From contig CM000150.2 of assembly GCA_000004695.1 (NCBI GenBank), positions 1,856,001 through 1,920,000 on the forward strand: DNA of 64,000 nucleotides, written 5' to 3'. The DNA is from Dictyostelium discoideum (Eukaryota). The notes beneath the pieces were generated by a model that was not told the origin of the DNA, did no database searches, and saw nothing but the letters and a program-made list of their open reading frames with translations. Made by a program: the position numbers and the translations under genes. This document shows positions 5,731 to 32,712 of the stretch, one piece after another; position 1 is the first letter of the stretch; each line of letters begins with the position of its first letter.

Positions 5731-5998
5731 CTAAAAACTTTAAAAATAATCAATTACAATAAAAAATTAAATAATAAATAAATAAAAAATTAAATAATAA
5801 ATAAATAATAAATAAATAATATTTAAAATAAAATAAAAATATAAATATAGGCTAATAATTAATAAATAAATAAATAAATAAATAATAAATAAATAATAAA
5901 TAAATAATAAATAATAAATAAATAATTAAATAAATATAATAATATAATATAATATTAAATACAGAAAAAAAAAAAAAAAAAAAAAAAAATATATAAAA

Positions 5999-7226
5999 AT
6001 GAAATCTTTTACATACATTTCATTTTTAATTTGTATATTATTCATTTTTATAAATATTGGACATGGTCAAATTTGGGAAGGTCCAAATCAAGAGTTGGGT
6101 ACATATTTTAGTTATGATAAAATGCAAGATCTTAATTATGATGTAACAAATTGGACTGTAAAAACAACAGATCACGATAGAACATATAATAGGTAAATAT
6201 TAAATAACAATTTTAATTTAACAATAACAATTTAAAAAATAATATATTAATTTCTTTATTTTTTATTTTTTATTTATAGATATGATTATTCATTTTTAAG
6301 ACTTCACCTTCGTAATACAAAATTTTTTTTTCATGGTTATATAGATGTTCATCCAAGAGTCGATGAGTTTACAACAGTTAAATTCTTAAAAAGTAAATAT
6401 TATTTCTATTTTCTATATATTTATTTTATATAAGTTAATATTAATTAAAATTTTTTTATTTTTTTATTTATTTATTTTTAGCTGGTTTTATTTATGATAA
6501 GATTAATCCAGATTATAATGGTACAGTTATGGATAGAGATAATATGTATACTCTTTCAGGTGAACTTATTGGTCTTAAAAATGTAACAACCTATACACAT
6601 CAATGGGTAAATGTTAGTAGACCATGTTGGGTAAATGGTACAAGAGCAATCAATTCACAATGTAATGGTACAACAATCGATATGAAGCCAATGAGAAATT
6701 GGTATGTTAAAGAATTACAACGTTTTAAAACTGTAAAACAAGAACCAATTCAATTACCAGAAAAGAAACTTACTGACAAAAACTCTGAAACTTTTGTATC
6801 AACTTTTGTAATCGTTATACAATTGGATGATGGTAAAATTGTTGATGCCACGTGGGATGGTGATAGGTTGCCCGAAGTCTGTAAAAAATGTGATGCTTGT
6901 ATTGATAATCAGTGTGGTGTTTATTGGGAAGATATGCCATGTGACCAATATAATGGTTGTATTTTAAAAATTATTGTTGCATGGGCTGGTAGAGATGCTT
7001 CTGGTACTAATTGTCGTTCAATTAATAGAGTAATTATTAAAATTTTATTAAAAAAAAAAAAAAAAAAAAAAACAAAAACTAATTTATAAATTTATAAATT
7101 TTATTTCAATAGATTCCATCAAATTTCCAAAGATACTCAGCAACTCCATACAAAAACATTGGTCGTAACTTTTTCGACGATTTTATGTACCGTGCTACCT
7201 ATGGCAAAGATCCAAATATTGCTTAA
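5999..7226 (+). CDS. Secreted, N-glycosylated Cys-rich protein of unknown family (4 exons)
   Basis: Exon 1 spans 5999..6192: signal peptide MKSFTYISFLICILFIFINIGHG, donor gtaaat at 6193. Exon 2 spans 6280..6392 (acceptor tatag at 6278-79, donor gtaaat at 6393). Exon 3 spans 6482..7029 (acceptor ttttag at 6480-81; contains the ORF MDRDNMYTLSGELIGLKNVTTYTHQWVNVSRPCW...; donor gtaatt at 7030). Exon 4 spans 7113..7226 (acceptor caatag; ...IPSNFQRYSATPYKNIGRNFFDDFMYRATYGKDPNIA*). Phases are consistent (2/1/0). Multiple NxS/T sites and a CKKCDACIDNQCGVYWEDMPCDQYNGC motif. Confidence 0.6.
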
Positions 7227-10296: not shown

Positions 10297-10476
10297 TTAC
10301 TCTTCACTAAAACTTAAAAATTCATCTTCTTCACTTAAACTATAATCATTATCTTCTAAAACAGTATTATCTTCACCCTCTTTATTTATTTTCTTGATTC
10401 TATTACATTCACTCTCACTATAATAATTTTCTTTGTCTTCATGCTCACCCTTGTCACCATCATCTTCATCATCATC

Positions 10477-10521
<45 letters not shown>

Positions 10522-13500
10522 TTCATCCTCGTCTTCGTCTTCGTCCTCATCTTCATCATCATATTCATCTTCAGAATCTGAATGAGGTTGAATTAATCCA
10601 TTTGGATTTAAATAGTCATATTCTTGAATTTGTTGTTCTAAAACACTGATACCTTTGGAATCAATTGAGACCATTGAGTTTATTGAATGAACATATTGAC
10701 AAAATGGACCCCAAGTTCTATCTTTTTTTAAGAGTTTAGAATTACCAATTACAAATAATCCAAATTTAGCTCTTGTGAGTGCGACATTAATACGTCTACG
10801 ATCAGAAAGGAAACCAATTCTTTCGCTTCTTACACACGATAAAATTATGATATCTTTTTCTGAACCTTGAAAACCATCAATTGTTGATGTTTCAATATTT
10901 AATGGATAATTAAACTGTTTATGTTGTTCTTTGATTTCACTCTTTTGTAATTTATATGGCGTAATAATACCAAATGAGAACTTTTTACATTCTGGATAAT
11001 CTTGAACTAACTTTTTAATCAATGTGAATACCATTGTGATTTCTAATTTATTCTTTAATGATCTTTTACCACTTTCTTCTTTTGAATCAATAACATCATA
11101 GAATCTAATTGGACCATATTTGATATCTGAATGGAAATTATGTTGATTGTATACTAATGACTTTACATTATCACCATCTAATAATCTGTCTCTATAGAAT
11201 TGATTTGATGGGAATCTTGAAATTGTTGGATGCATACGATATTGAACATGTAACATTTCAACTGGTAATACTTTTGATAATCTTTCGAATAATGATATAT
11301 TTAAACCATTTTCTGCACTTTCTGTAGAGAAGATAGTTGGTGGTAATTGTAATGGATCACCAACGAGAATTAACTTTTCAATATTACCAATACATAATGG
11401 AATTATTGATGATGGTTCAGTTGATTGAGTTGATTCATCTACTAATATAATATCTGCTCTAAAGTTGTTCTTAACAGTTTCAGAACCACTTCCAGATAGA
11501 GTTGAGAAAACAATGGATGCTCTATAGATACTATCAGATTTCTCACGTTGAGTTTTATTGAAAATTGAAATACTATGACAATCTGGTGATATATTTTCCT
11601 TTTTACCAATACGTACCATATTTGGTAAATAAGGTTTACCATCTAAACCTATTAATTTCTTTTTTGAACATCTCTTTGCAATTTCATCTACTGATGCATG
11701 TGATGGACCACATACTAATATCTTGAATTCTGGATTAATTGCTAATAAAATTGAAAGTAAATAATAAATTGTTGTAGTTTTACCAGTACCTGGTGGACCT
11801 TGAATTAATGTAATACCTTTTGTTGATAATGATGTTTCAATTGAATTAAATTGTGATGTATTCAATTCTTGAATACACATGGATCTCAACAATGATGGAA
11901 TAGCCATTCTCTTTGAGGATAGTATATCGTGGTCTTTTCTTGATGGTTGTAAAATTTGATCAAATAGTATTCCAGAATTTCTAAAATCTTTTATTGCATT
12001 CAACTCTCTAATGAATGTAATGCAATTTGAAACTTTTATAAAGTATAACTTTTCTTTTATAGTATTGGAATCTTTCAAATAGTTTTTATGATTGAATGAA
12101 ATTGAATCAAACATTTCTATTATAGGATCCATTGAATCTGATGAATGAAATTTACATTTTACAATTTGTGTATTCTCTTCTAAATCAACATTTGAACAAT
12201 TGAGTACTAAACCCATTGCAAACATTGGTTCATTGGTATTATCAAATACTTTAAAAAGTAAAACATCATTATAAAATAATTCTTGGGACCCATCATTTAC
12301 ATCAATTTCAAACTTCATAATTGAATAGTCGGATATCTCTTTAAATGAGTGAATTGTTGGTCCATCAATCATCTTAATTTTATCTAAACCTATTAATGTA
12401 CCATCTTTTTCTGATATTGAAACACCTTCAATTTCATCAAATTCACCTGCAAGTTGTTTCCTATATTCCTCCACTATCAAAGGTTTCATTAAATCCATAT
12501 ATTCTTCATGATTTGAGTAACTTGATTTCAAATTTCTAATACTATTCACCTGTATTAATGGAATTCTTTCTGGACTAATCTTTAAAAATATTGATAATAT
12601 TTCGTAAGGACTCTTTAAAAAAACACTAACTAATTCACGAATTAATACAATTTTTAAAAAATTTTCATTATTATTATAATTGTTTTTATTATTATTATTA
12701 TTAAATTTATTATTTGATTTGGTTGTTGTTGTTGTAGTAGTTGTTGGTGTTGTTGTTGGTGTTGGAGTTGGTGTTGATGATGAGTTTATTAAAACCTTTT
12801 CATTTTTAATTAATTGATAAATTTCATTAAATAACAATTTTGAAATTAAGGTTAACCTTTCAGAGTTTAATAATTTAAAAGTTGGAATTTTAATAGCGGA
12901 ACGATTAATTTTTGTTTTAGATTTAAATTTTTTGATAAAACCATCAGAGAATTTACCTCTAATTAAATCTAAAAAGTTTAATTTAGTTTCATTATTTCTC
13001 TCTAATTCTAATTTCAATTGATCTGAATTTATGGGTCTAAAAGTTTTTGTTTTTTCTTTTAACTCTGAAATTTGTGAGAAATGGTTGAATTCTATCATTA
13101 CCATTAATGATAATGATTTTTGATAAATTGAATCAATATTTTCAGTATTTATATTATTTCTTTGAACCATTGAAATATCGTGTATTAATCTAATTTTTAA
13201 AACTTGAATATGCATATTAAATTGATTTTTGTTCTCATCAATTATTTTCTTTACTTGTTCTAATGATGGTTGATAAGATGGATTCAATTTTGATAATGTA
13301 TCCAATTTTCTAAAAATTAAATCTGCACTATTTGAATCTTCAAATATTAAATTTAATAAACTACGTTTCAATGGTTGGTTTATATCAAAAGTGGATGAAC
13401 CACTTTGAGGTGTTGTTGTTGTATGAGTGGTTGCGGTTGTGGTGGTTGTGGTAGGTGAAAGTGAATCTGGTTCAATCACTGATTTAGTTGAGGCAATTTT

Positions 13501-15103
13501 TTGTGGTATTTGTTTTATTGTTGGTTGGGCCTCGTTTGGTTTACCTGGATTTATTGGAGCTGGTAATGACGGTAAAGTTGTTGTTGTAGGAGTGGTTGTG
13601 GTTGTGGTTGTAGTTGTGGTTGTGGTTGTGGTTGTGGTAGGAGAAAGTGAATCCGGTTCAATCACTGATTTAGTTGAGGCAATTGTTTGTGGTATTTGTT
13701 TTATTGTTGGTTGGGCCTCATTTGGTTTACCTGGATTTATTGGAGCTGATAATGATGGTAAACTTGTTGTTGTTGTTGTTGTTGTCGGAGTGGTTGTGGT
13801 GGTGGGTCTTATTGAAGTTGTTGTGTTTGTGGTGGTTATGGTAGGTGAAAGTGAATCGGATCCAATCACTGATTTAGTTGAGGCAACTGTTTGTGGTATT
13901 TGTTTTATTGTTGGCTTGGCTTCATTTGATCTACCTTGATTTATTGGAGCTGAGAATAATGGTAAACTTGTTGCTGTCGTCGACGTTGTTGTTGTTGTTG
14001 TTGTTTTTGTTGTTTTTGGTGCATTTGAATAGATAGTATACTTTTCTGATAAAGATTTTCCTTTTCCTATTAGCTTCATACATTTTTCAAATGATTCACA
14101 AATTTTGATAAAATTTGAATCAATTAAACCATCTAAATACTCTGTAAATCTTAAATCATTGATACGATAATTTTTATTCTTTAAAACTGTTCTAAATTCA
14201 ATTAATTCTTTTTTTAATTTACTTGGAAAAATACATTTTTCAATATCTAAAAACGATATTGGCATTTCAAATTGTACAGAAGTTTCTATTTCAATTCTAC
14301 CTCTAATTTTTTGTATTCTATTTGATGTTAATCTTTTAAAAAAAAAACTAAACTCGATTAAAAAATTTAAATTACTATAATCACTATATAATTGATATAT
14401 ATTTCTTTTAATTATATCATCTTCATCTTCATCTTCACCTTCATCTTCATCTTCATCTTCATCTTTATTATTATTATTATTATTATAATATAATAAATCA
14501 TTTCTTTGAAAAAATGTAGGAAATTTAGAAGAGACATGAATTGAAGCTGTATATTTGACATTGTTGATTTTACGTAATAAAAAGAATTTTGATGAGGATT
14601 TAAGTAATACTTCTTGAATTTTACTTTGAAAAGTTGGAAAATAATTTTCAATATCCTCTAAACTATCTATTAATATTGATGAGTTTATAGTTTCAGTGGT
14701 AATTTGAGGTGTTGGTGATAAATTAATTGTTTCATTTAATTGAGTTAATAATACTCCAAGTTTTGGGTAAAGTGATTTTATATAATTTGAAACTGTTTGA
14801 TTTGGAAGAGGCAATGAGAAATCTGGAATCATATATGATTCTGTTTTATTTGTAGGAGTGAAAATATATGGTTTTGAAATTAAATTTGGATCAAAAGTAC
14901 CAATTTTTTTAAATTTTATTGAAATTCCACTTGATTTTAAATGATTTTTAAAGTCATTTATAGAATTTTTTTTTGAACTTTTTGTTTGTGAAAAATGATT
15001 CTTTAATAAATGTATTTGATAATGTACATTAAATTTTATAATGGTTTGAAATTTGATAAATTTATTAAAAAAATCACTTGATAAAATTAAATGCTCACTA
15101 ACT

Positions 15104-15198
<95 letters not shown>

Positions 15199-15670
15199 TA
15201 AAAAATTATTCTTTATTTCTTTTAATAATTTTTTTTTTAATTTTTCAATCAGAGTAGTAAAAAAATCATCTTCCAAAGCTTCAATTATAAATTCTAGTTG
15301 ATCTACACATGTTGGAAATTGGACTTTTAATTGTTTAATTGTTTCTAATTGTTTTTTGGGGTTATTACATTCTTTAAATATTAATTTTATTAGATTATTA
15401 TTATTATTATCATCATTATTATCATCATTATTATTATTATTATTATTACTATTATTATTACTATTATTATTATTGTTATTATTATTATTAATGGTATTTG
15501 TCGATGATAATTCAGATTGCGTTGGATTTATTAATGACAAAGAAGGTGACAGATTTTTGCTTTCACTAGAAAAATTAAATGAGAGTTAGAAAAATGGCAA
15601 AAAAAAAAAAAAAAAAAAAAAAATATCTAATATCAATATTTTACTCTTCTGTTTTTAAAATAGAACCCAT
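10297..15670 (-). CDS. Giant UPF1/SEN1-like SF1B RNA/DNA helicase, paralog A (about 1764 aa; micro-exon plus one intron; no NTase domain; acidic D/E tail)
   Basis: Exon 1 spans 15670..15645 (ATG GGT TCT ATT TTA AAA ACA GAA GA; donor gtaaaa). The 79-nt intron has acceptor tttttctag (reverse complement of 15566-69). Exon 2 spans 15565..10297 (phase 2 closes as GAT). All helicase motifs are present: I TLIQGPPGTGKTTTIYYL; Ia ILVCGPSHASVDEIA; II ILVDESTQSTEP; III LILVGDPLQLPPTIFS; IV QYRMHPTISRFPSNQFYRDRLLDG; V DGFQGSEKDIIILSCVRS; VI IGFLSDRRRINVALTRAKFGLFVIGN. N-terminal region: four copies of a helical module with an LIEFSNL/LMVMIEFNHFSQ motif, separated by T/P/S-rich linkers including three tandem 57-aa repeats (13440-13990). 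Ends in a poly-D/E tail. Confidence 0.8.
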
Positions 15671-16261: not shown

Positions 16262-16680
16262 TTATAAAAAAAGAGTTAAAATGAGTTTAGGGACATTAGT
16301 TTTAAAAAAAAAAAACGTAGGTAAAATTGGTGGATTTAATGACTGAAGGAAATGAATTACCATATTAACTAAACAGAATGAACTAAATGTTTTCTCTGCT
16401 GCATTATTTAAATCTTTTGAGATTGCCCACCATTTTACTAATAATGCTAAATCTATACATCTATTATCAATTGAACAATATTCACCTAACAATAATGAAT
16501 TGTGATAACTAATCATTGAATTAAAACACATATCGAAATGAATACCTGATGATATCTCTTTGAATCTAATGATTGGTATTTTTGCATCCATTCTTTTTTC
16601 AATTAATTTATATTGTTGAGATCTATTTAAGTATTTATAAACTTGTTTTAAATAAGTTGTATCTTCCTTTTGAATACATG
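16262..16680 (-). pseudogene. Orphan fragment of the Cid1-like nucleotidyltransferase domain (copy of paralog-B region about 17853-18200)
   Basis: Translates (ORF 16262..16591 plus upstream) to ...KEDTTYLKQVYKYLNRSQQYKLIEK..MDAKIPIIRFKEISSGIHFDMCFNSMISYHNSLLLGEYCSIDNRCIDLALLVKWWAISKDLNNAAEKTFSSFCLVNMVIHFLQSLNPPILP, then diverges. No start, no upstream helicase. Confidence 0.75.
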
Positions 16681-16689
16681 AAAATATAT

Positions 16690-16843
16690 CACCAGATTGT
16701 CATCGTATATCTCTTTTTGATAAAACACTAGCACAAAGAAAAGAAATTCTTAAGAATGCAAATATTGTTTTCTCAACATTATCAGCAAGTGGTTCTGGTC
16801 CTGTTAGAAGTAACTTTAAAGCAAATATTGTACATGCACAAGT
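16690..16843 (+). pseudogene. Inverted orphan fragment of the helicase domain (matches the reverse complement of paralog B about 19690-19850: ...PDCHRISLFDKTLAQRKEILKNANIVFSTLSASGSGPVRSNFKANIV)
   Basis: Plus-strand sequence is the reverse complement of the minus-strand helicase coding sequence and is fused directly to the NTase fragment. It breaks off into a degenerate (acaggt..)n stretch at 16850-16930. Confidence 0.7.
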
Positions 16844-17354: not shown

Positions 17355-20300
17355 CTAAGAAAGTAATCCATTTGACGATAATGATAAATTCTCTTTGAAT
17401 AAATCATTAATTGTTGTTTTGGTTGATCTTAAAGAATATTCCATCATTGTGAATTCCATTAATACTCTTTGGTATGTTTTTTTAATTGATGATGCTAAAT
17501 TTCTATCATTAATAAATGGATCAAGTACAATGATATGACCTTTTACTGGTGTACCCTTTATAGTTGATCTTTTTAATAATGCTCCATTTTCACATAAACT
17601 ACCACCACCACTTGAGTGACTAATTGATATGATATTCTCTTTATAATTAAATGTTGAATAATAATAAAAGAATTGATAAAACAATTGAGCGATTGTCAAT
17701 TTGTTTCTTTTTGGTTCAAATTTGTTAAAACTTGACCAATCATAATATTTAACTAAATAATTTTCTACGATTGTTTGTGATTTTAATTTAATTAAATTTC
17801 TATCTGTTGAATACTTTTCTAATAGTTGATTTGATGTTGTTTGTAAATTTGGTAAAATTGGTGGATTTAATGACTGAAGGAAATGAATTACCATATTAAC
17901 TAAACAGAATGAACTAAATGTTTTCTCTGCTGCATTATTTAAATCTTTTGAAACTGCCCACCATTTTACTAATAATGCTAAATCTCTACATCTTTTATCA
18001 ATTGAACAATATTCACCTAACAATAATGAATTGTGATAACTCATCATAGAATGAAAGCACATATCGAAATGAATACCTGATGATATCTCTTTGAATCTAA
18101 TGATTGGTACTTTTGCACTAATTCTTTTTTCAATTAATTTATATAGTTGAGATCTATTTAAATATTTATAAACTTGTTTTAAATGAGTTGTATCTTCTTT
18201 TTGAGTACTTGAGAAATTAATATCTAAATCACTATCATTCAATGATAATCCACTCAAGAATGAACCATATAAATTAATTGATGCTGTTGCGAAACCTTCT
18301 GATATTAATTTCTTTAATCTATTATAACTATCTTGTTTAATTGATTTCTTTTTACATTCAATTTTTGAAATAATTTCATTAAGAGAATTATTTGTTTTTG
18401 ATGATGATAAAGATTGTGAAATTTCTTGTATTTCTAAATTATTTAAAACTTTCTTTAAATATGAATCCAAGAGACGTGAATATTTAACAAAACTATCTCT
18501 TAATGTTTTCTTTTTTGATAAAGTTGATTGATCTATTTTTTCTTGATTTGATTTTTGTAATTCTATAATAATATTAATAAGAGTGTTTGGAAAATCTTTA
18601 TCAATGATTAAATTATTTGAATCTGGTGAAACTGTCTCATCTTCATCATCATCATCGCTGATACTATAATATTCATCATCATCATCATCCAAATCATCAT
18701 TATCTTCACCTTCTTGATTAATTTTCTTGATTCTATTACTTTCATCATCTTCATCATGCTCTTGTATTTCTTCATTATCTTCATCTTCGTCTTCCTCTTC
18801 ATCTTTACCATCATATTCATCTTCAGAATCTGAATGGAATTCAATTAATCCATTTGGATTTAAAGAGTCATATTCTTGAATTTGTTGTTCTAAAACACTG
18901 ATACCTTTAGAATCAATTGAGACCATTGAGTTTATTGAATGAACATATTGACAAAATGGACCCCAAGTTCTATCTTTTTTTAAGAGTTTAGAATTACCAA
19001 TTACAAATAATCCAAATTTAGCTCTTGTGAGTGCGACATTAATACGTCTACGATCAGAAAGGAAACCAATTCTTTCACTTCTTACACATGATAAAATTAT
19101 AATATCTTTTTCTGAGCCTTGAACCCCATCAATTGTTGATGTTTCAATATTTAATGGATAATTAAACTGTTTATGTTGTTCTTTGATTTCACTCTTTTGT
19201 AATTTATATGGCGTAATAATACCAAATGAGAACTTTTTACATTCTGGATAATCTTGAACTAACTTTTTAATCAATGTGAATACCATTGTGATTTCTAATT
19301 TATTCTTTAATGATCTTTTACCACTTTCTTCTTTTGAATCAATAACATCATAGAATCTAATTGGACCATATTTGATATCAGAATGGAAATTATGTTGATT
19401 GTATACTAATGACTTTACATTATCACCATCTAATAATCTGTCTTTATAGAATTGATTTGATGGGAATCTTGAAATTGTTGGATGCATACGATATTGTGTA
19501 TTTAACATTTCAACTGGTAATACTTTTGATAATCTTTCAAATAATGATATATTTAAACCATTTTCTGCACTTCCTGATGAGAAAATAGTTGGTGGTAATT
19601 GTAATGGATCACCAACAAGAATTAACTTTTCAATATTACCAATACATAATGGAATTAGTGAAGCTGGTTCAGATGATTGAGTTGATTCATCTACTAATAC
19701 AATATTTGCTTTAAAGTTACTTCTAACAGAACCAGAACCACTTGCTGAAAGAGTTGAGAAAACAATATTTGCATTTCTAATAATTTCTTTTCTTTGTGCT
19801 GGTGTTTTGTCATAGGGTGATATACGATGACAATCTGGTGATATATTTTGAAGTTTACCAATACGTACCATATTTGGTAAATAAGGTTTACCATCTACAT
19901 TTATTAAACTCTTTTTTAAACATCTCTTTGCAACTTCATCTACTGATGCATGTGATGGACCACATACTAATATCTTGAATTTTGGATTAATTGCTAATAA
20001 AATTGAAAGTAAATAATAAATTGTTGTAGTTTTACCAGTACCTGGTGGACCTTGAATTAATGTAATACCTTTTTTTGATAATGATGTTTCAATTGCATTA
20101 AATTGTGATGCATTCAATTCTTGAATACAAATGGATCTTAACAATGATGGAATCTCCATTCTCATTGATGTCATTAAATTATAAACTTCCAATGATGGTT
20201 GTAAAATTTGATTTAAAAGTGTTTTTGAATTTTTAAACTCTTCTGTTGCTTCTAATTCTCTAATGAATGTAGTACTATTAGAAACCTTTATAAAATGTAA

Positions 20301-23300
20301 AATATCTTTTGAATATCTTTTCGAATTCAATGAAACTGAATAAAACTTTTCAATTAATGGTTTCGTTGAATCCGATAATACAAATTCGCAAATTATTTTT
20401 TGTTTTTTACTTTTTAATTCTGAAGATCTTGTAACTAAACTCAATGCAAACATTGGTTTATTTGTATGATCAAATGCTTTAAAAAGTAAAATATCATTAA
20501 GGTATATTTCCTCTAATTCATCCTTAACTTTAATATTAAATGTAATTTCAACAGAATCCTCCGACAACTCTTGGAATGAATGAATTGTTGGTGTATCATT
20601 CATTTTAACTCTATCTAAACCTATTAATGTACCATCTTGTTCTGATATTGAAATACCTTCAATTTCATCAAAATCACCTTCGAGTTGTGCTCTATATTCT
20701 TCTACTATTAAAGGTTTCATTAAATTTACAAATTCTGATTGGTCAGAATAACTATCTTGTAATGAATGAATATTATCAGCTTGAATTAATGGAATTCTTT
20801 CTGGATTACTCTTTAAAAATATTGACAATATCTCTTCAGAATCTTTTGAAATTACTTCAACATGATCACGAACTAAAACAACTTTTCTATTATTATTATT
20901 GTTATTTCTTGATCTTATTGTAGTTGTTGCAGTTGCTGTTCCTGTTGGGGATTTGATAAACAACTTTTCACTTTTAATTAATTGGTGAATTTCATTAAAT
21001 TGTAACTTTGAAATTAAACCTAACTTTTCAGAGTTTAATAATTTAAAAGATGGAATCTTTAAAGTTGAACCATTGATTTTTGTTGTTGATTCAAAGTTAC
21101 TGACGAGATTATCAAAGAATTTACCTTTAACTATATTTGAAAATTCTAACTTCGTTCTATTTTTTTTTGCTAATTCTGAATTCAACTGATTGTATTTGTG
21201 TCTACAAGTCTTTGTTTTTTCTTTTAATTCTGAATACTGTGAGAAATGATTAAACTCTAATAATACCATTAATGATAATGACTTGTTATATATTTTTTCA
21301 ATATTTTGATTGCTTGTATTATTTTTTTGAATCTTTGAAATATCTGTTTTTAATCTATTTTTAATAGCATTAATAGTTGAATTAAATTGAGTTATACTCT
21401 CATTGATAATATCATTCACTTGTTCAATTGATTTTTTCTTTGATGGATATGATTTAAATAATCTATCCAATGTTTTAATAATTGAATCTGCACTAGTTGA
21501 ATCTTCAAATATTAATTTCAATAAACTATGTTTCAATGATTGGTTTATATCAAATGTAGTAGTAGCAGCACTAGTATTATTAGAAGCAGATGATGCTGTA
21601 GTTGATTTATCTGTTGATGTTGTTGCAGAGGTATTTGCAGTGGTTGAGGTTGTTGTTGTTGTTGTTTTTGTTGTAGCTTTATCTTTTATAATACTAGTGG
21701 TAGTTGAAGCTGTAGGTGTTTTTGAACTTGTTGTATTAGATATTTTTTGTGAATTTGAAAGTGATAAATCTTTATAATCTAATACTAAAGATTTTATATG
21801 AATTATAAAAGATTTTATTAAAGTTCCAATTGTATTATCACTTTCATTTTTATGACCAAGTGGTAATTTAAATAATTCTACATTCATCACATATTCAGTT
21901 TTTTTAGATTTAATATTTAATTTTACTTGTTCTGGAATATAGTTTGAAATGTCTATTGATTTTTGATCAATAAATGCTTCAACTTTAATACAAAATCTTT
22001 GGTGGTGAGTATTCAATAAATTGAATGCCTCTGATCTAGAATCCAAAAAGGTTGGTGAGTTTTTAACTGTGAAATTTTTATCAAAATATTCTTTAATATA
22101 ATTTCTTTGCACTAAATTACTAAATTCAATTAATGAAATGATTGTAAAAATTGTTTCATTAATTTCATTAAATTTTGATGGATTTACACTTGATTTTAAT
22201 AATTTTCTTATATCTTTTGATGTACCAATTCTATAAGATTCAGTCTTTTTTTTGAATGGTAAAACTATGTCTTTTACCATTGATTTAATTGAATCTATTT
22301 GTAAATTAAATGTTGGATATTGATTCTTTAAACTATCAATTGCTTCTGGTTTGTTAAAAAATGTATTAAATAATGAAAATATTTGTTTTTCAATATTTGA
22401 TGGTGTCTTCAAAATTACTGTTGGTATATTTGATAATAATTCTTTTGGTGTTGATGTTGGTGTTGGTGTTGGTGTTGGTGTTGGTGTTGGTGTTGGTGTT
22501 GGTGTTGGTGTTGGTGTTGGTGTTGGTGTTGGTGTTGGAGTTGGAGTTGGAGTTGGAGTTGGTGTTGGTGTTGGTGTTGGTGTTGGTGTTAGTGTTGGTA
22601 TTGGTTGTGTTGTTGTTGTTGAGTTTGATAAAAGTTGATAATCTAAAATTAAAGATTTTATATAAATCAAATGTGATTCGATTAATGTTCCAATGGTATT
22701 ACTTTCGATATTCTTGTGACCAAGTTCTAATTTAAATAAACCAATATTAAATAAAACTTTTTTAGAATCTAATTCTAACTTCAATGGTTTTGGAACAAAT
22801 TTTGAAACAAAAGATGGATTTTGACTAATAAATTCCTCTAGATTGATTTTTGATTTTTGATATTGAGTTTCCAATAAACCAAAAGCCTCTAATTGTAAAC
22901 TTGCTTGGTGTGTGATTTTGACTATATTTTTTTCAATATATTTTTTAACACTACTTCTTTGGATTAGATTACTCAACTCTATTAATGAAATGATTGTAAC
23001 AAATATTGTTACAATTTCATCAAACTTTTTTGAATTTATCTTTGAATTCAATGATTTTTTAAGTTGATTTAATGTTGTAATTTTCACTGAATCAATATTG
23101 GTTTGACTTTCTTTTATAAAAGTTTCAACTGATAATAATTCTGATTTAAAACCTGGGTATTTTTTAATCAAACCTTGAATATCTTCTGATCTGTGGAATA
23201 ATTTATTAAAAATTGAAAAAACTACGATTTCAGTAGTTGTTGGTTTTGTTTGTTGTTGGCTATTTATAACTTTTGATACCAATGATGGTGATGTTGCTAA

Positions 23301-24273
23301 TGGTACTGTTGGTGGTGATACAGTTGTTGTTGTTGTTGCTAATGACACTGCTGGTGGTGTTATATCAATAACTGATGTAGATGATATTTTCTGTTCTATT
23401 GTAGTTGTACCTAAACATTTATTATATAATTTACAAAGGTTGATAAAGTTTGATTGAATTGAAATTGATATATCTTGAGAATCTGAAAATTTTAAATAAT
23501 TTATTTTATAATTTTTACCCTTTAAAATAAATTTGAAATCATTTGAAATTTGACGAAATTTTGATGGATAATTACATTTGAAAACCTCTGATAATGTTAT
23601 TGTTATATTTTGAGCTGACAATTGATCATAAAGCCTTTGTTTTTGATCAGCTGTGATTGATGTATCATCTGTAAATAATTTCTTTAAAATTAATCTTTGA
23701 TATAAAAAACTAAATTCAATCATAATTTTCAATGCTATAAAATCATTATAAATTTGAAAAATATCGTTATTATTATTATTACGATTGATATTATTTAATA
23801 AATTTGTTTTTTTAACTAATTTACTAAATTTATCAGAGACATCTATTGAAGAAGATGTTTTAATAATTCCAATTTTATTCTCTAAAGAAGTTTTATCATT
23901 TTCTAAAATTTCTTTAATTTTCTTAATATCGAAATTTGGAAATAATTTACAAACACCATTAATTCCATTTATGATATCTTTTAAATTACTATGCTTGAAT
24001 ATAGTTTTAAAAATATCATTTTCATTACTATTTATAATTTGTGAATTTTCAGTAATATTCAATTTGTTCATATTATTTATTATTGAATCCATTGTACTAT
24101 TGGTGTTAGTGTTGGTAGTGGTAGTGGTACTGGTGGTGGTAGTGGTACTGGTGGTGCTCGATTCTACAGTTGTTTTTGTTTTTTCTGGTACGCTTTGAGA
24201 AATTGGATTGTTATTATTTGATGAAGGTGGTGGTGGTGGTGGTGGTGAAGTTGATGAATTTGGAATATTTTCC

Positions 24274-24310
<37 letters not shown>

Positions 24311-24413
24311 AATGGGAATTAGGAAAACAGGTATAACATAGAATTTTAAAATTTTATGAATTGAATTTTATAATATTAATATTTTACCCTTCTGTTTCTA
24401 AAGAAGAACTCAT
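17355..24413 (-). CDS. Giant UPF1/SEN1-like helicase fused to a C-terminal Cid1/GLD2-type nucleotidyltransferase (TUTase/ncPAP) domain, paralog B (about 2314 aa)
   Basis: Exon 1 spans 24413..24388 (ATG AGT TCT TCT TTA GAA ACA GAA GG; donor gtaaaa). The 114-nt intron has acceptor tttttttag (reverse complement of 24274-76). Exon 2 spans 24273..17355. The table ORF (17355..24092) starts at an internal Met; the frame is open upstream to the acceptor. Helicase motifs match paralog A (about 18900-20300). After an acidic linker the C-terminal region (about 17355-18500) carries the Pol-beta NTase signature ASINLYGSFLSGLSLNDSDLDINFS (Cid1: GSFKSGLYLPTSDIDL), a third carboxylate in IHFDMCF, and a PAP-associated domain LLLGEYCSIDKRCRDLALLVKWWA..FSSFCLVNMVIHFLQ. 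Four N-terminal helical modules with (TP)n linkers encoded by (ggtgtt)n. Confidence 0.85.
22445..22612 (-). repeat. (ggtgtt)n / (ggagtt)n hexanucleotide microsatellite encoding a (TP)n linker inside paralog B. Equivalent arrays lie at 30125-30300 in paralog C.
   Basis: Direct inspection: about 28 tandem hexamers. The plus-strand ORFs 22351..22638 and 22373..22735 are shadows. Confidence 0.85.
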
Positions 24414-25041: not shown

Positions 25042-28000
25042 TTAAGAAAGTAATCCATTTGACGATAATGATAAATTCTCTTTGAATAAATCATTAATTG
25101 TTGATTTGGTTGATCTTAAAGAATATTCCATCATTATGAATTCCATTAATACTCTTTGGTATGTTTTTTTAATTGATGATGCTAAATTTCTATCATTAAT
25201 AAATGGATCAAGTACAATGATATGGTCTCTTACAGCTCTACTCCTTATATTTGATCTTTTTAATAATGCTCCATTTTCACATAAACTACCACCACCACTT
25301 GAGTGACTAATTGATATGATATTCTCTTTATAATTAAATGTTGAATAATAATAAAAGAATTGATAAAACAATTGAGCGATTGTCAATTTGTTTCTTTTTG
25401 GTTCAAATTTGTTAAAACTTGACCAATCATAATATTTAACTAAATAATTTTCTACGATTGTTTGTGATTTTAATTTAATTAAATTTCTATTTGTTGAATA
25501 CTTTTCTAAGAGTTGATTTGATGTTGTTTGTAAATTTGGTAAAATTGGTGGATTTAATGATTGAAGGAAATGGATTACCATATTAACTAAACAGAATGAA
25601 CTAAATGTTTTCTCTGCTGCATTATTTAAATCTTTTGAAACTGCCCACCATTTTACTAATAATACTAAATCTCTACTTCTATTATCGATTGAACAATATT
25701 CGCCTAACAATAATGAATTGTGATAACTCATCATTGAATTAAAACACATATCGAAATGAACACCTGATGATATCTCTTTGAATCTAATGATAGGTACTTT
25801 TGCATCCGTTCTTTTTTCAATTAATTTATATAGTTGAGATCTATTTAAATATTTATAAACTTGTTTTAAATGAGTTGTATCTTCTTTTTGAGTACTTGAG
25901 AAATTAATATCTAAATCACTATCATTCAATGATAATCCACTCAAGAATGAACCATATAAATTAATTGATGCTGTTGCGAAACCTTCTGATATTAATTTCT
26001 TTAATCTATTATAACTATCTTGTTTAATTGATTTCTTTTTACATTCAATTTTTGAAATAATTTCATTAAGAGATTTATTTATATTTGATGAGGATGATGA
26101 TAAAGATTGTGAAATTTCTTGTATTTCTAAATTATTTAAAACTTTCTTTAAATATGGATCCAAGAAACGTGAGTGTTTTATAAAATTATCTCTTAATTTT
26201 TTCTTTTTTGATAAAGTTGATTGATCTATTTTTTCTTGATTTGATTTTTGTAATTCTATAATAATATTAATGAGAGCATTTGGAAAATCTTTATCAATGA
26301 CTAAATTATTTGTATCAAATACTTCTTCATCTTCATCATACTCTTCGCTGATACTATGATATTCTTCATCACCATGCTCATTATCATCATCATCATCATC
26401 CTCCAAATCATCATTATCTTCACCTTCTTGATTAATTTTCTTGATTCTATTACTTTCATCATCTTCATCATGCTCTTGTATTTCTTCATTATCTTCATCT
26501 TCGTCTTCCTCTTCATCTTCACTATCATCATAGTCATCTTCAGAATCTGAATGGAATTCAATTAATCCATTTGGATTTAAAGAGTCATATTCTTGAATTT
26601 GTTGTTCTAAAACACTGATACCTTTAGAATCAATTGAGACCATTGAGTTTATTGAATGAACATATTGGCAAAATGGACCCCAAGTTCTATCTTTTTTTAA
26701 GAGTTTAGAATTACCAATTACAAATAATCCAAATTTAGCTCTTGTGAGTGCGACATTAATACGTCTACGATCAGAAAGGAAACCAATTCTTTCGCTTCTT
26801 ACACACGATAAAATTATGATATCTTTTTCTGAACCTTGAACTCCATCAATTGTTGATGTTTCAATATTTAATGGATAGTTAAACTGTTTATGTTGTTCTT
26901 TGATTTCACTCTTTTGTAATTTGTATGGTGTAATAATACCAAATGAGAACTTTTTACATTCTGGATAATCTTGAACTAACTTTTTAATCAATGTAAATAC
27001 CATTGTGATTTCTAATTTATTCTTTAATGATCTTTTACCACTTTCTTCTTTTGAATCAATAACATCATAGAATCTAATTGGACCATATTTGATATCTGAA
27101 TGGAAATTATGTTGATTGTATACTAATGACTTTACATTATCACCATCTAATAATCTGTCTTTATAGAATTGATTTGATGGGAATCTTGAAATTGTTGGAT
27201 GCATACGATATTGTGTATTTAACATTTCAACAGGTAATACTTTTGATAATCTTTCAAATAATGATATATTTAAACCATTTTTTGCACTTTCTGATGAGAA
27301 AATAGTTGGTGGTAATTGTAATGGATCACCAACAAGAATTAACTTTTCAATATTACCAATACATAATGGAATTAGTGAAGCTGGTTCAGATGATTGAGTT
27401 GATTCATCTACTAATACAATATTTGCTTTAAAGTTACTTCTTATTGGTTTAGAACCACTTGCTGATAGAGTTGCGAAAATAATAGTTGCATTTCTAATAA
27501 TTGCTTTTCTTTGTGCTGGTGTTTTATCAAAAAGTGATATACGATGACAATCTGGTGATATATTTTGAAGTTTACCAATACGTACCATATTTGGTAAATA
27601 AGGTTTACCATCTATATTAACTAAACTCTTTTTCAAACATCTCTTTGCAACTTCATCTACTGATGCATGTGATGGACCACATACTAATATCTTGAATTTT
27701 GGGTTAATTGCTAATAAAATTGAAAGTAAATAATAAATTGTTGTAGTTTTACCAGTACCTGGTGGACCTTGAATTAATGTAATACCTTTTGTTGATAATG
27801 ATGTTTCAACTGCACTAAATTGTGATGTATTCAATTCTTGAATACACATGGATCTCAACAATGATGGAATCTCCATTCTCATTGATGTCATTAAATTATA
27901 AACTTCCAATGATGGTTGTAAAATTTGATTTAAAAGTGTTTTTGAATTTTTAAATATTTCCGGTGCTTCTAATTCTCTAATAAATGTAGTACTATTAGAA

Positions 28001-31000
28001 ACCTTTATAAAATGTAAAATATCTTTTGAAGTTTTCGAATTCAACGAAACTGAATAAAACTTTTCAATTAATGGTTTCGTTGAATCCGATAATACAAATT
28101 CGCAAATAATTATTTGTTTTTTACCCTTTAAAACTGAATTTGATGTTACTAACCCCAATGCAAACATTGGTTTACTAGTATGATCAAATGTTTTAAAAAG
28201 TAAAATATCATTAAGGTATATTTCCTCTAATTCATCCTTAACCTTAATATTAAATTTAATTGCAACCAAATCCTCTGACAACTCTCGGAATGAATGAATT
28301 GTTGGTGTATCATTCATCTTAACTCTATCTAAACCTATTAATGTACCATCTTGCTCTGAAATTGAAACACCTTCAATTTCATTAAAATCACCTTCGAGTT
28401 GTGCTCTATATTCTTCTACTATTAAAGGTTTCATTAAATTTACAAATTCTGATTGGTCAGAATAACTATCTTGTAATGAATGAATATTATCAGCTTGAAT
28501 TAATGGAATTCTTTCTGGACTACTCTTTAAAAATATTGATAATATCTCTTCAGAATCTTTTGAAATTACTTCAACATGATCACGAACTAAAACAACTTTT
28601 CCATTATTATTATTATTATTATTACTATTATTGTTATTTCTTGATCTTATTGTAGTTGTTCCTGTTGAGGAGTTGACAAACAACTTTTCACTTTTAATTA
28701 ATTGATAAATTTCATTAAATTGTAACTTTGAAATTAAACCTAACTTTTCAGAATTTAATAATTTAAAAGATGGAATCTTTAAAGTTGAACCATTGATTTT
28801 TGTTGTTGATTCAAAGTTACTGACGAGATTATCAAAGAATTTACCTTTAACTATATCTGAAAATTCTAATTTCATTTTATTATTTTTTGCTAATTCTGAA
28901 TTCAATTGATTGAGGTATTGTCTACAAGTCTTTGTTTTTTCTCTTAATTCTGAATACTGTGAGAAATGATTAAACTCTAATAATACCATTAATGATAATG
29001 ACTTGTTATATATTTTTTCAATATTTTGATTGCTTGTATTATTTTTTTGAATCTTTGAAAAATCTGTTTTTAATCTATGTTTAATACCATTAATATTTGT
29101 ATTAAATTGAATTTTACTCTCATTGATTATATTCCTAACTTGTTTAATTGATTCTTTGTTATAAGGATGTGATTGTGATAATCTATCCAATGTTTTAATA
29201 ATTGAATCTGCACTATTAGAATCTTCAAATATTAATTTCAATAAACTATGTTTCAATGAATGGTCATTCTCAAATGTTGTAGTAGTATTATTATTAGAAC
29301 TAGGTGATGGTACTATTGATATTTGTGATGTTGTTGTTGGTGATGGTGCTGTTGTTGTAGCTTTATCTTTTATAATACTAATGGTAGCTGAAGCTGTGGG
29401 TGTTGTTGAACTTGTTGTATTAGATATTTTTTGTGAATTTGAAAGTGATAAATCTTTATAATCCAACACTAAAGATTTTATATAAATAATAAAAGATTTT
29501 ATTAAAGTTCCAATTGTATTATCACTTTGATTTTTATGACCAAGTGGTAATTTAAATAACTCTACATTCATCGTATATTCAGTTTTTTTAGATTTAGATT
29601 TAATATTTAATTCTACTTGTTCTGGAATATAGTTTAAAATATCTATTGATTTTTGATCAATAAATGCTTCAACTTTAATACAAAATCTTTGGTGGTGAAT
29701 ATTCAATAAATTGAATGCCTCTAATTTAAAATTCAAAATATCTTGTGAGTTTTCAACTGTGAAATTTTTATCAAAATATTCTTTAATATAATTTCTTTGA
29801 GAAAGATTACTAAATTCAATTAATGAAATGATTGTAAAAATTGTTTCATTAATTTCATTAAACTTTGATGGATTTACACTTGATATTAATAATTCCTGTA
29901 CAGCTTTTGATGTATTGTTTTTATGAAATTCAATCTTTCTTTTGAATAATGAAATTATATCCTTAGTCGCTGATTTAATTAAACCAATTTGTAAATTAAA
30001 TGCTGGATATTGATTCTTTAAACTATCAATTTCCTCTGGTTTATTAAAAAATGTATTAAATAATGAAAATATTTGTTTTTCAATATTTGATGGTTTCTTC
30101 AAAATTACTGTTGGTATATTTGATAATAACTCTTTTGGTGTTGTTGGTGTTGGTGTTGGTATTGGTGTTGGTGTTGGTGTTGATGTTGGTGTTGGAGTTG
30201 GAGTTGATGTTGGTGTTGGTGTTGATGTTGGTGTTGGTGTTGATGTTGACGTTGGAGTTGTGATTGTTGGTGGTGGTACTGGTACTGGTACTGGTTTTAT
30301 TTCTGTTGGTGATGCTGTTGTTGTAGTTGTTGAGTCTGATAAAAGTTGATAATCTAAAATTAAAGATTTTATATAAATCAAATGTGATCCGATTAATTGT
30401 CCAATGGTATTACTATCGTTATTTTTGTGACCAATTTGTAATTTAAATAAATCAATGTTAAATAAAACTTTTTCAGATTTTAATTCTAATTTCGATGGTA
30501 CTGGAACGAAATCTAAAACATTAGATGATATAGTTTGACTAATGAGTTTTTCTAAATCAATTTTTAAACTTTGATGTTGAATTTCTAATAAATTGAAAAG
30601 CGATGGATGTATTCTCTTTGGATTGGGTAAATGTTTTTTAAGAGTAATTCTTTGGTAAAGATTACTAAACTCTATTAATAAAACGATAGTAACTAGTGTA
30701 GTTTTAATTTCTTCAAATTTTATAAAGTTAATCTTTGAATCCAATGATTTTTTAAGTTGATTTAATGTTGTAATTTTCACTGAATCTATGATACTTTGAA
30801 ATGATGTTTGGTTTTCTTTTATAATTGTTTCAACTGATAATAATTCAAATTCAAAGATTGAGTGTTTTTTAATCAAATCTTGAATACCTTCTAATTTGTA
30901 GAAAATTTTATAAAAAATTGAAAAAACTATGATTTCAGTAGTTGTTGGTTCCATTGTGAATATTGTTGATGATGATGATGATTCCACTGTTGGTGATTTT

Positions 31001-32712
31001 GTTGATGATGTTGATGGTTTTGGTAATGCTGTTGGTGATGGTGTTGGTGATGGTTTTGGTAATGCTGTTGATGGTGTTGTTGGTAATGCTGTTGTTGGTA
31101 ATGGTGTTGATGGTTTTGGTAATGGTGTTGGTGATGGTGTTGGTAATGCTGTTGATGCTGATTTTGTTGATGTTGTTGATGGTGTTGGTTTTGTTAATGG
31201 TGTTGATGGTGATTTTGATGCTGTTGTTGTTGATGCTGTTGTCGTTGGTAATGGTGTTGATGATGACTTTGTTGATGGTGTTGGTAATGCTTTTGTTGGT
31301 AATGGTGAAGCTATACCTAAACATTTATTATATAATTTACAAAGGTTGATAAAGTTTGACTGAATTGAAATTGATATATCTTGAGAATCTGAAAATTTTA
31401 AATTTTTTATTCTATAATATTTACCCTTTAAAACAAAATTGAAATCATTTGAAATTTGATGAAAACTAGGTGGGTTATTACATTTGAAAACCTCTGGTAA
31501 TGTTATTGTTCTATTTTGAGCTGACAATTGATCATAAAGTTTTTGTTTTTCATCAGCTGTGATTGATTTATCACCTGTAAACAATTTCTTTAAAATTAAT
31601 CTTTGATATAAAAAACTAAATTCAATCATAACTTTCAATGCTATAAAATCATTGTAAATTTGAAAAATATCATTGTTATTATTATTATTATAATTATTAT
31701 TAGGATTGATATTATTATTATTTAATAAATCTTTTTTTTGAACTAAATTTCTAAATTTATCAGATATTTCTTTTGATGCTATATTTTCAGTATATTCAAT
31801 TTTATTCCCTAAAGAAGTTTGATTGCTTTTTAAAATTTCTTTAATATAATTAATATCAAAACTTGGGAATAATTTAGAAACATAATCAGTTTCATTTATG
31901 ATATCTTTTAAATTACTATGTCTGAATATAGTTTTAAAAATATCAAATTCACCACCACTATTTATAATTTGTGAATTTTTAGTAATATTCAATTGGTTCA
32001 TATTATTTGTTATTGAATCTATTGTTGATGTATTTGTTGTTTTAGTAGTTACACTTTGATAAATTGGAGTTTGTGCTATTGATGTTAATGTTGGTTGTAA
32101 TATTGGTGGTGCCTTTGATGATATTGGTACTGTTGGTGGTGGTGATATTGGTGATACTGTTGAGGGTGTTGCTAATTGTGCTACTGTTGGTGGTAATGGC
32201 ATTGTTGATGGTGGTGATATTGGTACTGTTGGTGGTGATATTGGTACTGTTGGTGGTGATGATGGTGGTGGTGGTAATGGCATTGTTGGTGGTGATGGTG
32301 GTAATGGCATTGTTAGTGGTGGTGGTGGTAATGGCATTGTTGATTTTGATGATATTGGTACTGTTGGTGGTGCTGTTGATTGTGTTGATATAGATGATAC
32401 TGTTGAGGGTGTTGCTACATCTGATGTTGGTGGTGTTGTATAGAAGATGCTGTTGTAGATTGTTGATGTTAATTTTGATAAAAGAGAAAAAGAAAAATAA
32501 GAAAAATAAGAAGAAGAAGAAGTAGAAGGTGGTGGTGATGGTGGTAATGGTGGTGATGGTGGTGATGGTGGTGATGGAATTGATGAATCACTTAAAAATA
32601 AAAAAAGGAAATGGAATTTAGAGAAATTAGTATATAGTGGAGTATTAAAAAATTAAATGACTTATATTTTATAATATTAATATATTTACTCTTCTGTTGT
32701 TAAATAGTTCAT
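25042..32712 (-). CDS. Giant UPF1/SEN1-like helicase fused to a C-terminal Cid1/GLD2-type nucleotidyltransferase domain, paralog C (about 2523 aa)
   Basis: Exon 1 spans 32712..32690 (ATG AAC TAT TTA ACA ACA GAA GA; donor gtaaat). The 99-nt intron has acceptor ttatttttaag (reverse complement of 32591-94). Exon 2 spans 32590..25042; phase 2 is consistent and gives ...TEDDSSIPSPSPSPSPLPP.... The table ORF starts at an internal Met at 32337. P-rich N-terminus (MPLPPPP x3), four helical modules, the full helicase motif set (about 26600-28000), and an intact NTase motif YGSFLSGLSLNDSDLDI plus VHFDMCF and the PAP-associated domain (25042-26200). The last about 1.3 kb plus 100 bp of 3' flank is about 97% identical to paralog B. 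Confidence 0.85.

Follow-up and report, generated by a model that had tools for sequence, protein, structure and literature searches.

The locus and its gene models

The window analysed here is a 64-kb stretch (64,000 nucleotides) of the Dictyostelium discoideum genome (GCA_000004695.1, contig CM000150.2, positions 1,856,001 to 1,920,000 of the forward strand). It is strongly AT-rich (GC approximately 15-32%) and 99.6% identical to the corresponding region of another assembly, GCA_054883475.1. Three tandem paralogs, designated A, B and C, lie on its minus strand, each as a single long open reading frame (ORF). This text concerns B and C, which are predicted to join an Upf1-like RNA helicase to a C-terminal terminal nucleotidyltransferase (TENT; the domain is also referred to as the nucleotidyltransferase, or NTase, domain). 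Residue numbers for B and C are ORF numbers unless stated. The gene models are as follows.

10297-15670, minus strand: gene A (exon 1, 15645-15670; ORF, 10297-15540)
17355-24413, minus strand: gene B (exon 1, 24388-24413; intron, 24274-24387, 114 nt; exon 2, 17355-24273)
17355-24092, minus strand: ORF of gene B (spliced product 2314 aa; full-length number = ORF number + 69)
25042-32712, minus strand: gene C (exon 1, 32690-32712; intron, 32591-32689, 99 nt; exon 2, 25042-32590)
25042-32337, minus strand: ORF of gene C (spliced product 2523 aa; full-length number = ORF number + 92)

All three genes start with an exon 1 of 23-26 nt that encodes M-x-x-x-L-x-T-E; the intron after it is of the GTAAA type and 79-114 nt long. 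For B, a single GT..AG model has an intron of typical short length, and its 2314-aa product is the product called in the other strain. The 2523-aa product of C was likewise called there, where the ORF product differs by I635L only. An exact look-up of the three raw ORFs returned no match, because the annotated products include the mini-exon 1. A read-through artefact joining two genes was rejected, as the ORF runs uninterrupted in two paralogs and in two strains, and the same architecture is found in orthologs of five other dictyostelid species.

Identity and fold of the C-terminal domain

The C-terminal domains were located by Pfam, motif scan and alignment.

17358-18440, minus strand: TENT domain of B (ORF aa approximately 1885-2245; palm, aa 1905-2029; PAP_assoc, aa 2134-2196)
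25045-26127, minus strand: TENT domain of C (PAP_assoc, aa 2320-2382)

From their sequences and predicted fold, both are assigned to the Cid1/TUT4/7/GLD-2 family of TENT domains. Three Pfam families were matched above their gathering cut-offs: MTPAP-like_central (PF22600; 6.3e-19 and 68.9 bits for B, 2.7e-20 and 73.3 bits for C, cut-off 27), PAP_assoc (PF03828; 3e-8, 34.3 bits for B and 34.2 bits for C, cut-off 22.6) and TUTase (PF19088; 2e-8, 34.6 bits for B and 34.2 bits for C, cut-off 25.8). A phmmer search of the PDB returned TUT4 (4e-34), TUT7 (2.5e-27), URT1 (2e-25), GLD2 (6e-21), Cid1 (2e-20) and CutA (2e-19), with weaker matches to Trf4, mtPAP and TUT1. An OAS- or cGAS-type NTase was rejected, no OAS or cGAS entry being present among the PDB matches at E ≤0.01.

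An AlphaFold2 model of B aa 1880-2245 had a mean predicted local distance difference test score (pLDDT) of 78.6 and a predicted template-modelling score (pTM) of 0.83, with pLDDT 87-97 near the catalytic strands; the low-confidence parts were a lineage-specific insertion and loops. The model shows the two-lobed Cid1-like fold. Foldseek assigned a probability of 1.00 to TUT7, URT1, GLD-2, Cid1 and CutA, and these top matches (TUT7 as its catalytic module) had E values of approximately 1e-17 to 1e-16 and target-normalised template-modelling (TM) scores of 0.65-0.82. Placement within the TENT2/TENT3 clade was split: the single sequence favours TUT4/7 and URT1, and the family profile favours GLD-2.

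Catalytic and substrate-contact residues

B and C were compared in a residue table with Cid1, TUT7 (1027-1295) and URT1 (both from HMMER alignments) and four named GLD2s, using a MAFFT alignment. The Cid1 reference sequence was 100% identical to 4e7x_A. The catalytic features are as follows.

18222-18266, minus strand: hGS...DxD motif of B (YGSFLSGLSLNDSDLDI, starting at aa 1942; YGS, aa 1942-1944)
18261-18266: B G1943/S1944 (Cid1 G89/S90)
18228-18230: B D1955 (Cid1 D101)
18222-18224: B D1957 (Cid1 D103)
18063-18065, minus strand: third catalytic Asp of B, D2010, in IHFDMCF (Cid1 D160)
25915-25917 and 25909-25911: C D2141 and D2143, in the same 17-mer YGSFLSGLSLNDSDLDI, which starts at aa 2128 (YGS, aa 2128-2130)
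25750-25752, minus strand: third catalytic Asp of C, D2196, in VHFDMCF
Other key residues of C: G2129/S2130, N2207, K2229, S2246/S2247, F2248, D2377 and R2383 (25189-25191)

A first-pass annotation of this DNA had placed these motifs and reported three intact carboxylates in both paralogs, and motif scan, Pfam and the alignment with Cid1 bear this out. The substitution of the DxD carboxylates that it had named as counter-evidence is absent: D1955/D1957 of B and D2141/D2143 of C align with Cid1 D101/D103 and with TUT7 D1058 and D1060. The GS-to-DxD spacing is 10 residues, within the 9-13 rule. Given the Pfam and PDB scores above, the motifs lie far outside what chance would produce.

In Cid1 numbering, B and C retain G89, S90, D101, D103, D160, N171, K193, S210, S211, D330, F332 and N337. 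They carry the changes F88Y, N165S, E333I, H336R (the selectivity position) and R340S, together with R139K, where TUT7 likewise has Lys; Y212F, where Phe can still stack on the base; and K197V. The named GLD2s have R, S or Q at the last of these positions, and Lys there is therefore probably not essential. In a separate alignment of 59 sequences (GLD2-like and other homologs), D131 and K164 were invariant and G64, S65, D76, D78, N142, S181 and S182 were conserved to 90% or more, and every one of these residues is present in B. The sequence and the model thus predict that the transferase keeps a complete two-metal catalytic set and the ribose and triphosphate contacts equivalent to Cid1 N171, K193 and S211, and B and C are probably active TENTs.

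Part of the earlier argument for activity had to be replaced. The string quoted as the Cid1 signature, FGSFKSGLYLPTSDIDL, does not come from Cid1; the real Cid1 sequence is FGSLESGLALKNSDMDL (confirmed against 4e7x_A), which is identical to the B 17-mer at 9 of 17 positions. When padded with VVF to 20 residues, the quoted string found its best match among solved structures in Trf4/Pap2, so the claimed very close match to Cid1 was built on a misquoted motif. Similarly, the segment LLLGEYCSID...FSSFCLVNMVIHFLQ, which had been taken for the PAP/25A-associated core, is the helical part bearing the K193/S211/Y212 equivalents, and Pfam PAP_assoc maps downstream of it.

The nucleotide-selectivity position

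The nucleotide-recognition motif (NRM) of B is DPFINDRNLAS.

17490-17522, minus strand: NRM of B, with D2191 (Cid1 D330), I2194 (E333), R2197 (H336; codon AGA, 17502-17504), N2198 (N337) and S2201 (R340)

The equivalent of Cid1 H336, which the first-pass annotation had singled out as the selectivity histidine, is Arg in both paralogs (B R2197, C R2383), within a DxxIxxR cluster. HMMER places the DPF...N block gap-free against TUT7 H1286 and the URT1 His, MAFFT places it against Cid1 H336, and the predicted equivalence of the Arg with H336 is robust. When the C-terminal 105 aa of the NTase were searched alone, no PDB match was obtained, so the equivalence of R2197 with R557 of the fungal enzyme CutA is transitive, via Cid1 H336.

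According to the published rule, U-adders have Dxx[DE]xxH, A-adders have [DE]xxDxxN, and the C/A-adding CutA has ExxNxxR; Asn at the selectivity position is invariant in demonstrated poly(A) polymerases (PAPs) (PMC5689010). B and C have Arg and Ile in place of the U-adder pattern, with its His within Dxx[DE]xxH. They also depart from the A-adder pattern, with Arg replacing Asn and Ser at the position of Cid1 R340 and Trf4 R435. Because the selectivity position is Arg (DxxIxxR), we infer that the enzyme is neither a canonical U-specific poly(U) polymerase (PUP) nor an Asn-type PAP.

CutA is the sole characterised Arg-type enzyme, with a preference for C, the ability to polymerise A and weak addition of U. 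Its R557 corresponds to Cid1 H336 (PMC5689010, PMC7498324). In CutA crystal structures R557 lies beside the incoming base, R557A and R557H alter nucleotide use, and the Arg supports processive A addition (PMC7498324). It disfavours U, and R557H moves CutA toward U (PMC5689010, PMC7498324). In the converse experiment, the Cid1 mutant D330E/E333N/H336R showed a U share down to approximately 50% (PMC5689010). The safe conclusion from the aligned residues is that neither U nor A can be predicted as the nucleotide that B and C add, with CutA as the nearest precedent. The first-pass proposal of a uridylyl- or adenylyltransferase rather than a degenerate domain therefore stands in its second half, by sequence and fold, and is unsupported in its choice of U or A, position 336 being Arg.

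In a survey of 379 NTase domains, the H336 position was Asn in 145, His in 96 and Arg in 51. Most of the 51 Arg cases are dead N-terminal domains of TUT4/7-like proteins in which D103 or D160 is gone (for example GSDN..Q). The combination of DxxIxxR with an intact triad was found in B, in TENTs of Neocallimastigomycota and Podila, and in one metagenomic relative.

The fused helicase

Each TENT domain lies in the same polypeptide as a helicase, which is located approximately 200 aa upstream of it.

18987-20120, minus strand: helicase core of B, Upf1/Sen1-like superfamily 1B (SF1B) (ORF aa 1325-1702; Pfam, PDB and motif scan)
26704-27837, minus strand: helicase core of C (ORF aa 1501-1878; Pfam and motif scan)

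The motifs of B are GPPGTGKT, DESTQ, GDPLQLPP, QYRMH, TIDGVQGSEKD and RRINVALTRAK, and A, B and C each have every conserved helicase motif that was searched for in intact form. Pfam matched AAA_11 (1.4e-43) and AAA_12 (2.2e-59) in B, and the best PDB matches were Sen1 (2.8e-68) and Upf1 (3e-62), followed by IGHMBP2 (2.5e-41) and ZNFX1 (1.6e-26). The helicase is accordingly classified from sequence as an Upf1-like (DNA2/NAM7) SF1B RNA helicase with Sen1 and Upf1 as its closest structures. From the N-terminus, B and C consist of a fast-evolving region (four helical repeat modules of approximately 210 aa), the helicase, an acidic linker and the C-terminal transferase. Full-text searches of the literature library found no paper describing this helicase-NTase fusion.

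Dictyostelid orthologs and constraint

Orthologs were found by exhaustive search of 1.84 billion representative sequences. A word-indexed search with the B NTase gave 7 distant matches and no dictyostelid protein, and a profile search did not return the dictyostelid proteins of its own query alignment, apparently missing such long proteins. In the exhaustive search, the closest NTase relatives were helicase-NTase proteins of other dictyostelids. They came from D. purpureum (a 2271-aa protein), from Heterostelium album, from Cavenderia fasciculata, which has three copies, and from Acytostelium subglobosum, whose two genes lie two locus tags apart. Their annotations go no further than hypothetical or 'regulator of nonsense transcripts-like'. 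The predicted helicase-TENT architecture is thus conserved across Dictyostelia. No other helicase fusion was seen among the few non-dictyostelid top matches scanned (about a dozen of the 150 listed matches were scanned).

GS, DxD, D160, K193, S210/S211 and D330 (Cid1 numbering) are invariant across the dictyostelid orthologs. The selectivity position varies as follows.

His: Acytostelium P0009 and P0017, Cavenderia P0011 (clusters DxxDxxH or DxxExxH; P0011 has DxxExxH)
Asn: Heterostelium P0021 (cluster DxxTxxN)
Ser: Cavenderia P0019, P0158 and P0033 (P0033 is 918 aa, helicase content putative)
Ile: D. purpureum P0008
Arg: D. discoideum B and C

Since the other dictyostelid orthologs carry H, N, S or I, the Arg of B and C is best read from the alignment as lineage-specific and derived independently of that of CutA.

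B and its D. purpureum ortholog are 53% identical in the helicase, 43% in the NTase and 26% in the pre-helicase region; the linker and the N-terminal approximately 1090 aa could not be aligned. The product of a neighbouring housekeeping gene, aspartate aminotransferase (33432-34712), matches the D. discoideum AX4 protein at 100% identity and is 84% identical between D. discoideum and D. purpureum. Between B and C, the ratio of nonsynonymous to synonymous substitution rates (dN/dS) was 0.27 in the helicase (p=2e-4) and 0.84 in the N-terminal 1000 aa. For function of the NTase, the deep conservation of its catalytic residues would be a stronger argument than the paralog dN/dS.

Paralog A, an NTase relic and probable gene conversion

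A shares the mini-exon, the N-terminal module and the helicase with B and C. No NTase remnant was found 3' of A by tblastn with the B C-terminus. Between B and A lies a pseudogene fragment.

16320-16690, minus strand: NTase relic, 371 bp (corresponds to B nt 5869-6242, aa 1957-2081)
16681-16799: inverted 119-bp helicase piece adjoining the relic

The relic has 94% nucleotide identity to B and C. It starts just past the DxD motif, contains neither GS nor DxD, and is preceded directly upstream by a stop codon. Together with the inverted helicase piece it suggests a putative fourth copy that was lost or rearranged. It also serves as an internal contrast, the discarded copy being degenerate and B and C being intact in two strains.

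Nucleotide identity between A and B/C is a mosaic, with approximately 70-80% in the flanks and 92-100% in two helicase tracts.

18834-19673: first high-identity tract of B (ORF aa 1474-1753), with the matching parts of A and C
19914-20153: second high-identity tract of B (ORF aa 1314-1393), with the matching parts of A and C

Such a mosaic is a sequence signature of gene conversion, here presumably among A, B and C.

Elsewhere in the window, a 668-aa ORF at 2322-4328 (minus strand) carries long repeats of the EEVKP type at each end, and its centre is rich in His (HHHHGHED...).

Comparison with characterised systems

The U-specific enzymes Cid1 (S. pombe), the TUT4/TUT7 catalytic module and URT1 have the same fold as the B and C domains and give the best PDB sequence matches. 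They share with them hGS, DxD, the third Asp, N171, K193, S210/S211, D330, F332 and N337. B and C differ from them by His to Arg, E333 to Ile, K197 to Val, Y212 to Phe and N165 to Ser, and have neither CCHC zinc knuckles nor a second pseudo-NTase domain; a helicase is fused instead. CutA (Aspergillus/Thielavia) has Arg at the H336 position, as do B and C, and Foldseek gave query-normalised TM scores of 0.69-0.72; its cluster is ExxNxxR versus DxxIxxR, and it has no helicase fusion. GLD-2/TENT2 is the top match of the family profile and a strong fold match, and likewise lacks K197. It differs in its ExxDxxN cluster, with Asn at the selectivity position, and in working with RNA-binding partners rather than a fused helicase.

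Hrr1 and Cid12 are paired in the fission-yeast RNA-directed RNA polymerase complex (RDRC), and ZNFX1 is presumably a relative of Hrr1. The helicase of B and C is nearer to Sen1/Upf1 (1e-68 to 1e-62) than to ZNFX1. MOV10-TUT4/7 and Hrr1-Cid12 resemble B and C in bringing an Upf1-like SF1 helicase and a Cid1-family transferase to the same RNA 3' end; they are separate proteins, whereas B and C hold both predicted activities in one polypeptide. MOV10 and TUT4/7 cooperate in trans on LINE-1 mRNA (PMC6191937).

Discussion

We regard it as fairly probable, on sequence and model, that B and C are active, helicase-tethered RNA 3'-tailing TENTs belonging to neither the canonical U-specific PUPs nor the Asn-type PAPs. 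Upf1-family helicases translocate 5'-to-3'. In the proposed mechanism, the helicase would load on a target RNA, move 5' to 3' while stripping proteins and structure, and hand the 3' end so released to the transferase tethered to it. The tail that the transferase adds could mark the RNA for 3'-5' decay or serve as a primer for copying by an RNA-dependent RNA polymerase (RdRP). B and C might then be a covalent version of the MOV10-TUT4/7, Upf1-TUTase (terminal uridylyltransferase) or Hrr1-Cid12 partnerships. No RdRP gene was noted among the window ORFs of at least 150 aa in the general ORF list.

Several observations count against this proposal. The NRM loop of the B model reaches a pLDDT of approximately 62-78 only, and K197V, Y212F, N165S, E333I, H336R and R340S together differ from every characterised active enzyme. 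The His/Asn rule does not always hold: the His is missing from some U-adders, and TUT1, MUT-2 and NPOL-1 add purines despite having it (bioRxiv 10.1101/422972); reading Arg as CutA-like is therefore weak. The dN/dS between the B and C NTase domains is 0.44, with approximately 30 differences, and is not significantly below 1 (Fisher p=0.06). A is a helicase paralog without the NTase domain (Pfam: helicase only) and ends in an acidic tail, and D. purpureum P0008 has N171K and a degenerate NRM (DLFSSKI); because of these two cases, the domain may be dispensable or decaying in this clade. The variation of the selectivity position among orthologs and the changes in P0008 hint at diversification, or possibly partial decay, of nucleotide recognition. 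The 5'-to-3' hand-off, finally, we infer purely from domain order and family polarity.

Three other explanations were weighed against the tethered-TENT proposal. That the domain is catalytically silent and serves to bind RNA or as a scaffold, in the manner of the inactive N-terminal NTase-like domain of TUT4/7, or is being lost, would fit the absence of the domain from A, the relic fragment, the state of the D. purpureum protein, the dN/dS of B versus C and the Arg itself, which is typical of dead N-terminal TUT4/7-like domains. Those dead domains have lost D103 or D160, whereas B and C keep the three carboxylates, GS, N171, K193 and S210/S211; the catalytic residues are invariant across dictyostelid orthologs, and within the protein the NTase ranks second in conservation versus D. 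purpureum. We consider a silent or disappearing domain unlikely. A canonical U-specific terminal uridylyltransferase of the Cid1, TUT4/7 or URT1 kind, the leading idea of the first-pass annotation, appears distinctly improbable. Arg at H336 and Ile at E333 oppose it, as do the discrimination of CutA Arg against U, the shift of R557H toward U (PMC5689010, PMC7498324) and the approximately 50% U of the Cid1 triple mutant (PMC5689010), and the signature quoted in its favour was a non-Cid1 string. On its side are the single-sequence PDB matches, the best of which are the catalytic modules of TUT4, TUT7 and URT1, the U-adders that lack His (bioRxiv 10.1101/422972) and the PUP-type clusters DxxDxxH/DxxExxH in the fusions Acytostelium P0009 and P0017 and Cavenderia P0011. 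From these clusters, the ancestral fusion was probably a PUP.

A GLD-2-like non-canonical poly(A) polymerase is an unlikely reading that nevertheless draws on several lines of evidence. The dictyostelid NTase profile best matches animal GLD2 (1e-59 to 1e-49, in a search that sees word-sharing candidates only), and the top fold matches include GLD-2 of rat and mouse, with target-normalised TM scores as high as 0.82. GLD2s also lack K197, the selectivity position of the Heterostelium ortholog is occupied by Asn, and short A-tails occur on D. discoideum pre-miRNA intermediates (PMC6161686). Given the support of CutA Arg for processive A addition (PMC7498324), B and C may incorporate A. Against this reading, the Asn present in all demonstrated PAPs (PMC5689010) is missing from B and C, the Arg of the R340/R435 type is Ser, and GLD2s have ExxDxxN versus DxxIxxR.

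A further and rather doubtful reading, taken with all its parts, is that the dictyostelid fusions form a lineage-specific RNA surveillance or genome-defence system. The fast-evolving N-terminal modules would choose the RNAs to be targeted, for example those of retrotransposons or viruses; the Upf1/Sen1-like motor would run to the 3' end, and the transferase would write the tail. Tail composition would have diverged among species and paralogs (His, Asn, Ser, Ile, Arg), with a CutA-like, C/A-rich tail in D. discoideum, and an arms race would show itself in the domain loss in A, the gene conversion and the tandem amplification.

TENTs normally rely on separate partner proteins to find RNAs, and to our knowledge MOV10, Upf1 and Hrr1 are each tied to a TENT solely through complexes. 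The TENT family itself is known; the covalent helicase fusion and the Arg-type recognition motif are what set B and C apart within it. A clade-wide natural fusion would be 'Rosetta-stone' evidence for a functional unit of Upf1-like helicases and Cid1-like tailing enzymes, and would offer a single-polypeptide system in which to study how a 5'-to-3' helicase passes the 3' end of an RNA on to a transferase. Knock-outs and 3'-end sequencing are feasible in D. discoideum, which is open to genetic manipulation. The H, N, S, I and R found among the orthologs would provide a natural series on the evolution of nucleotide choice in this family.

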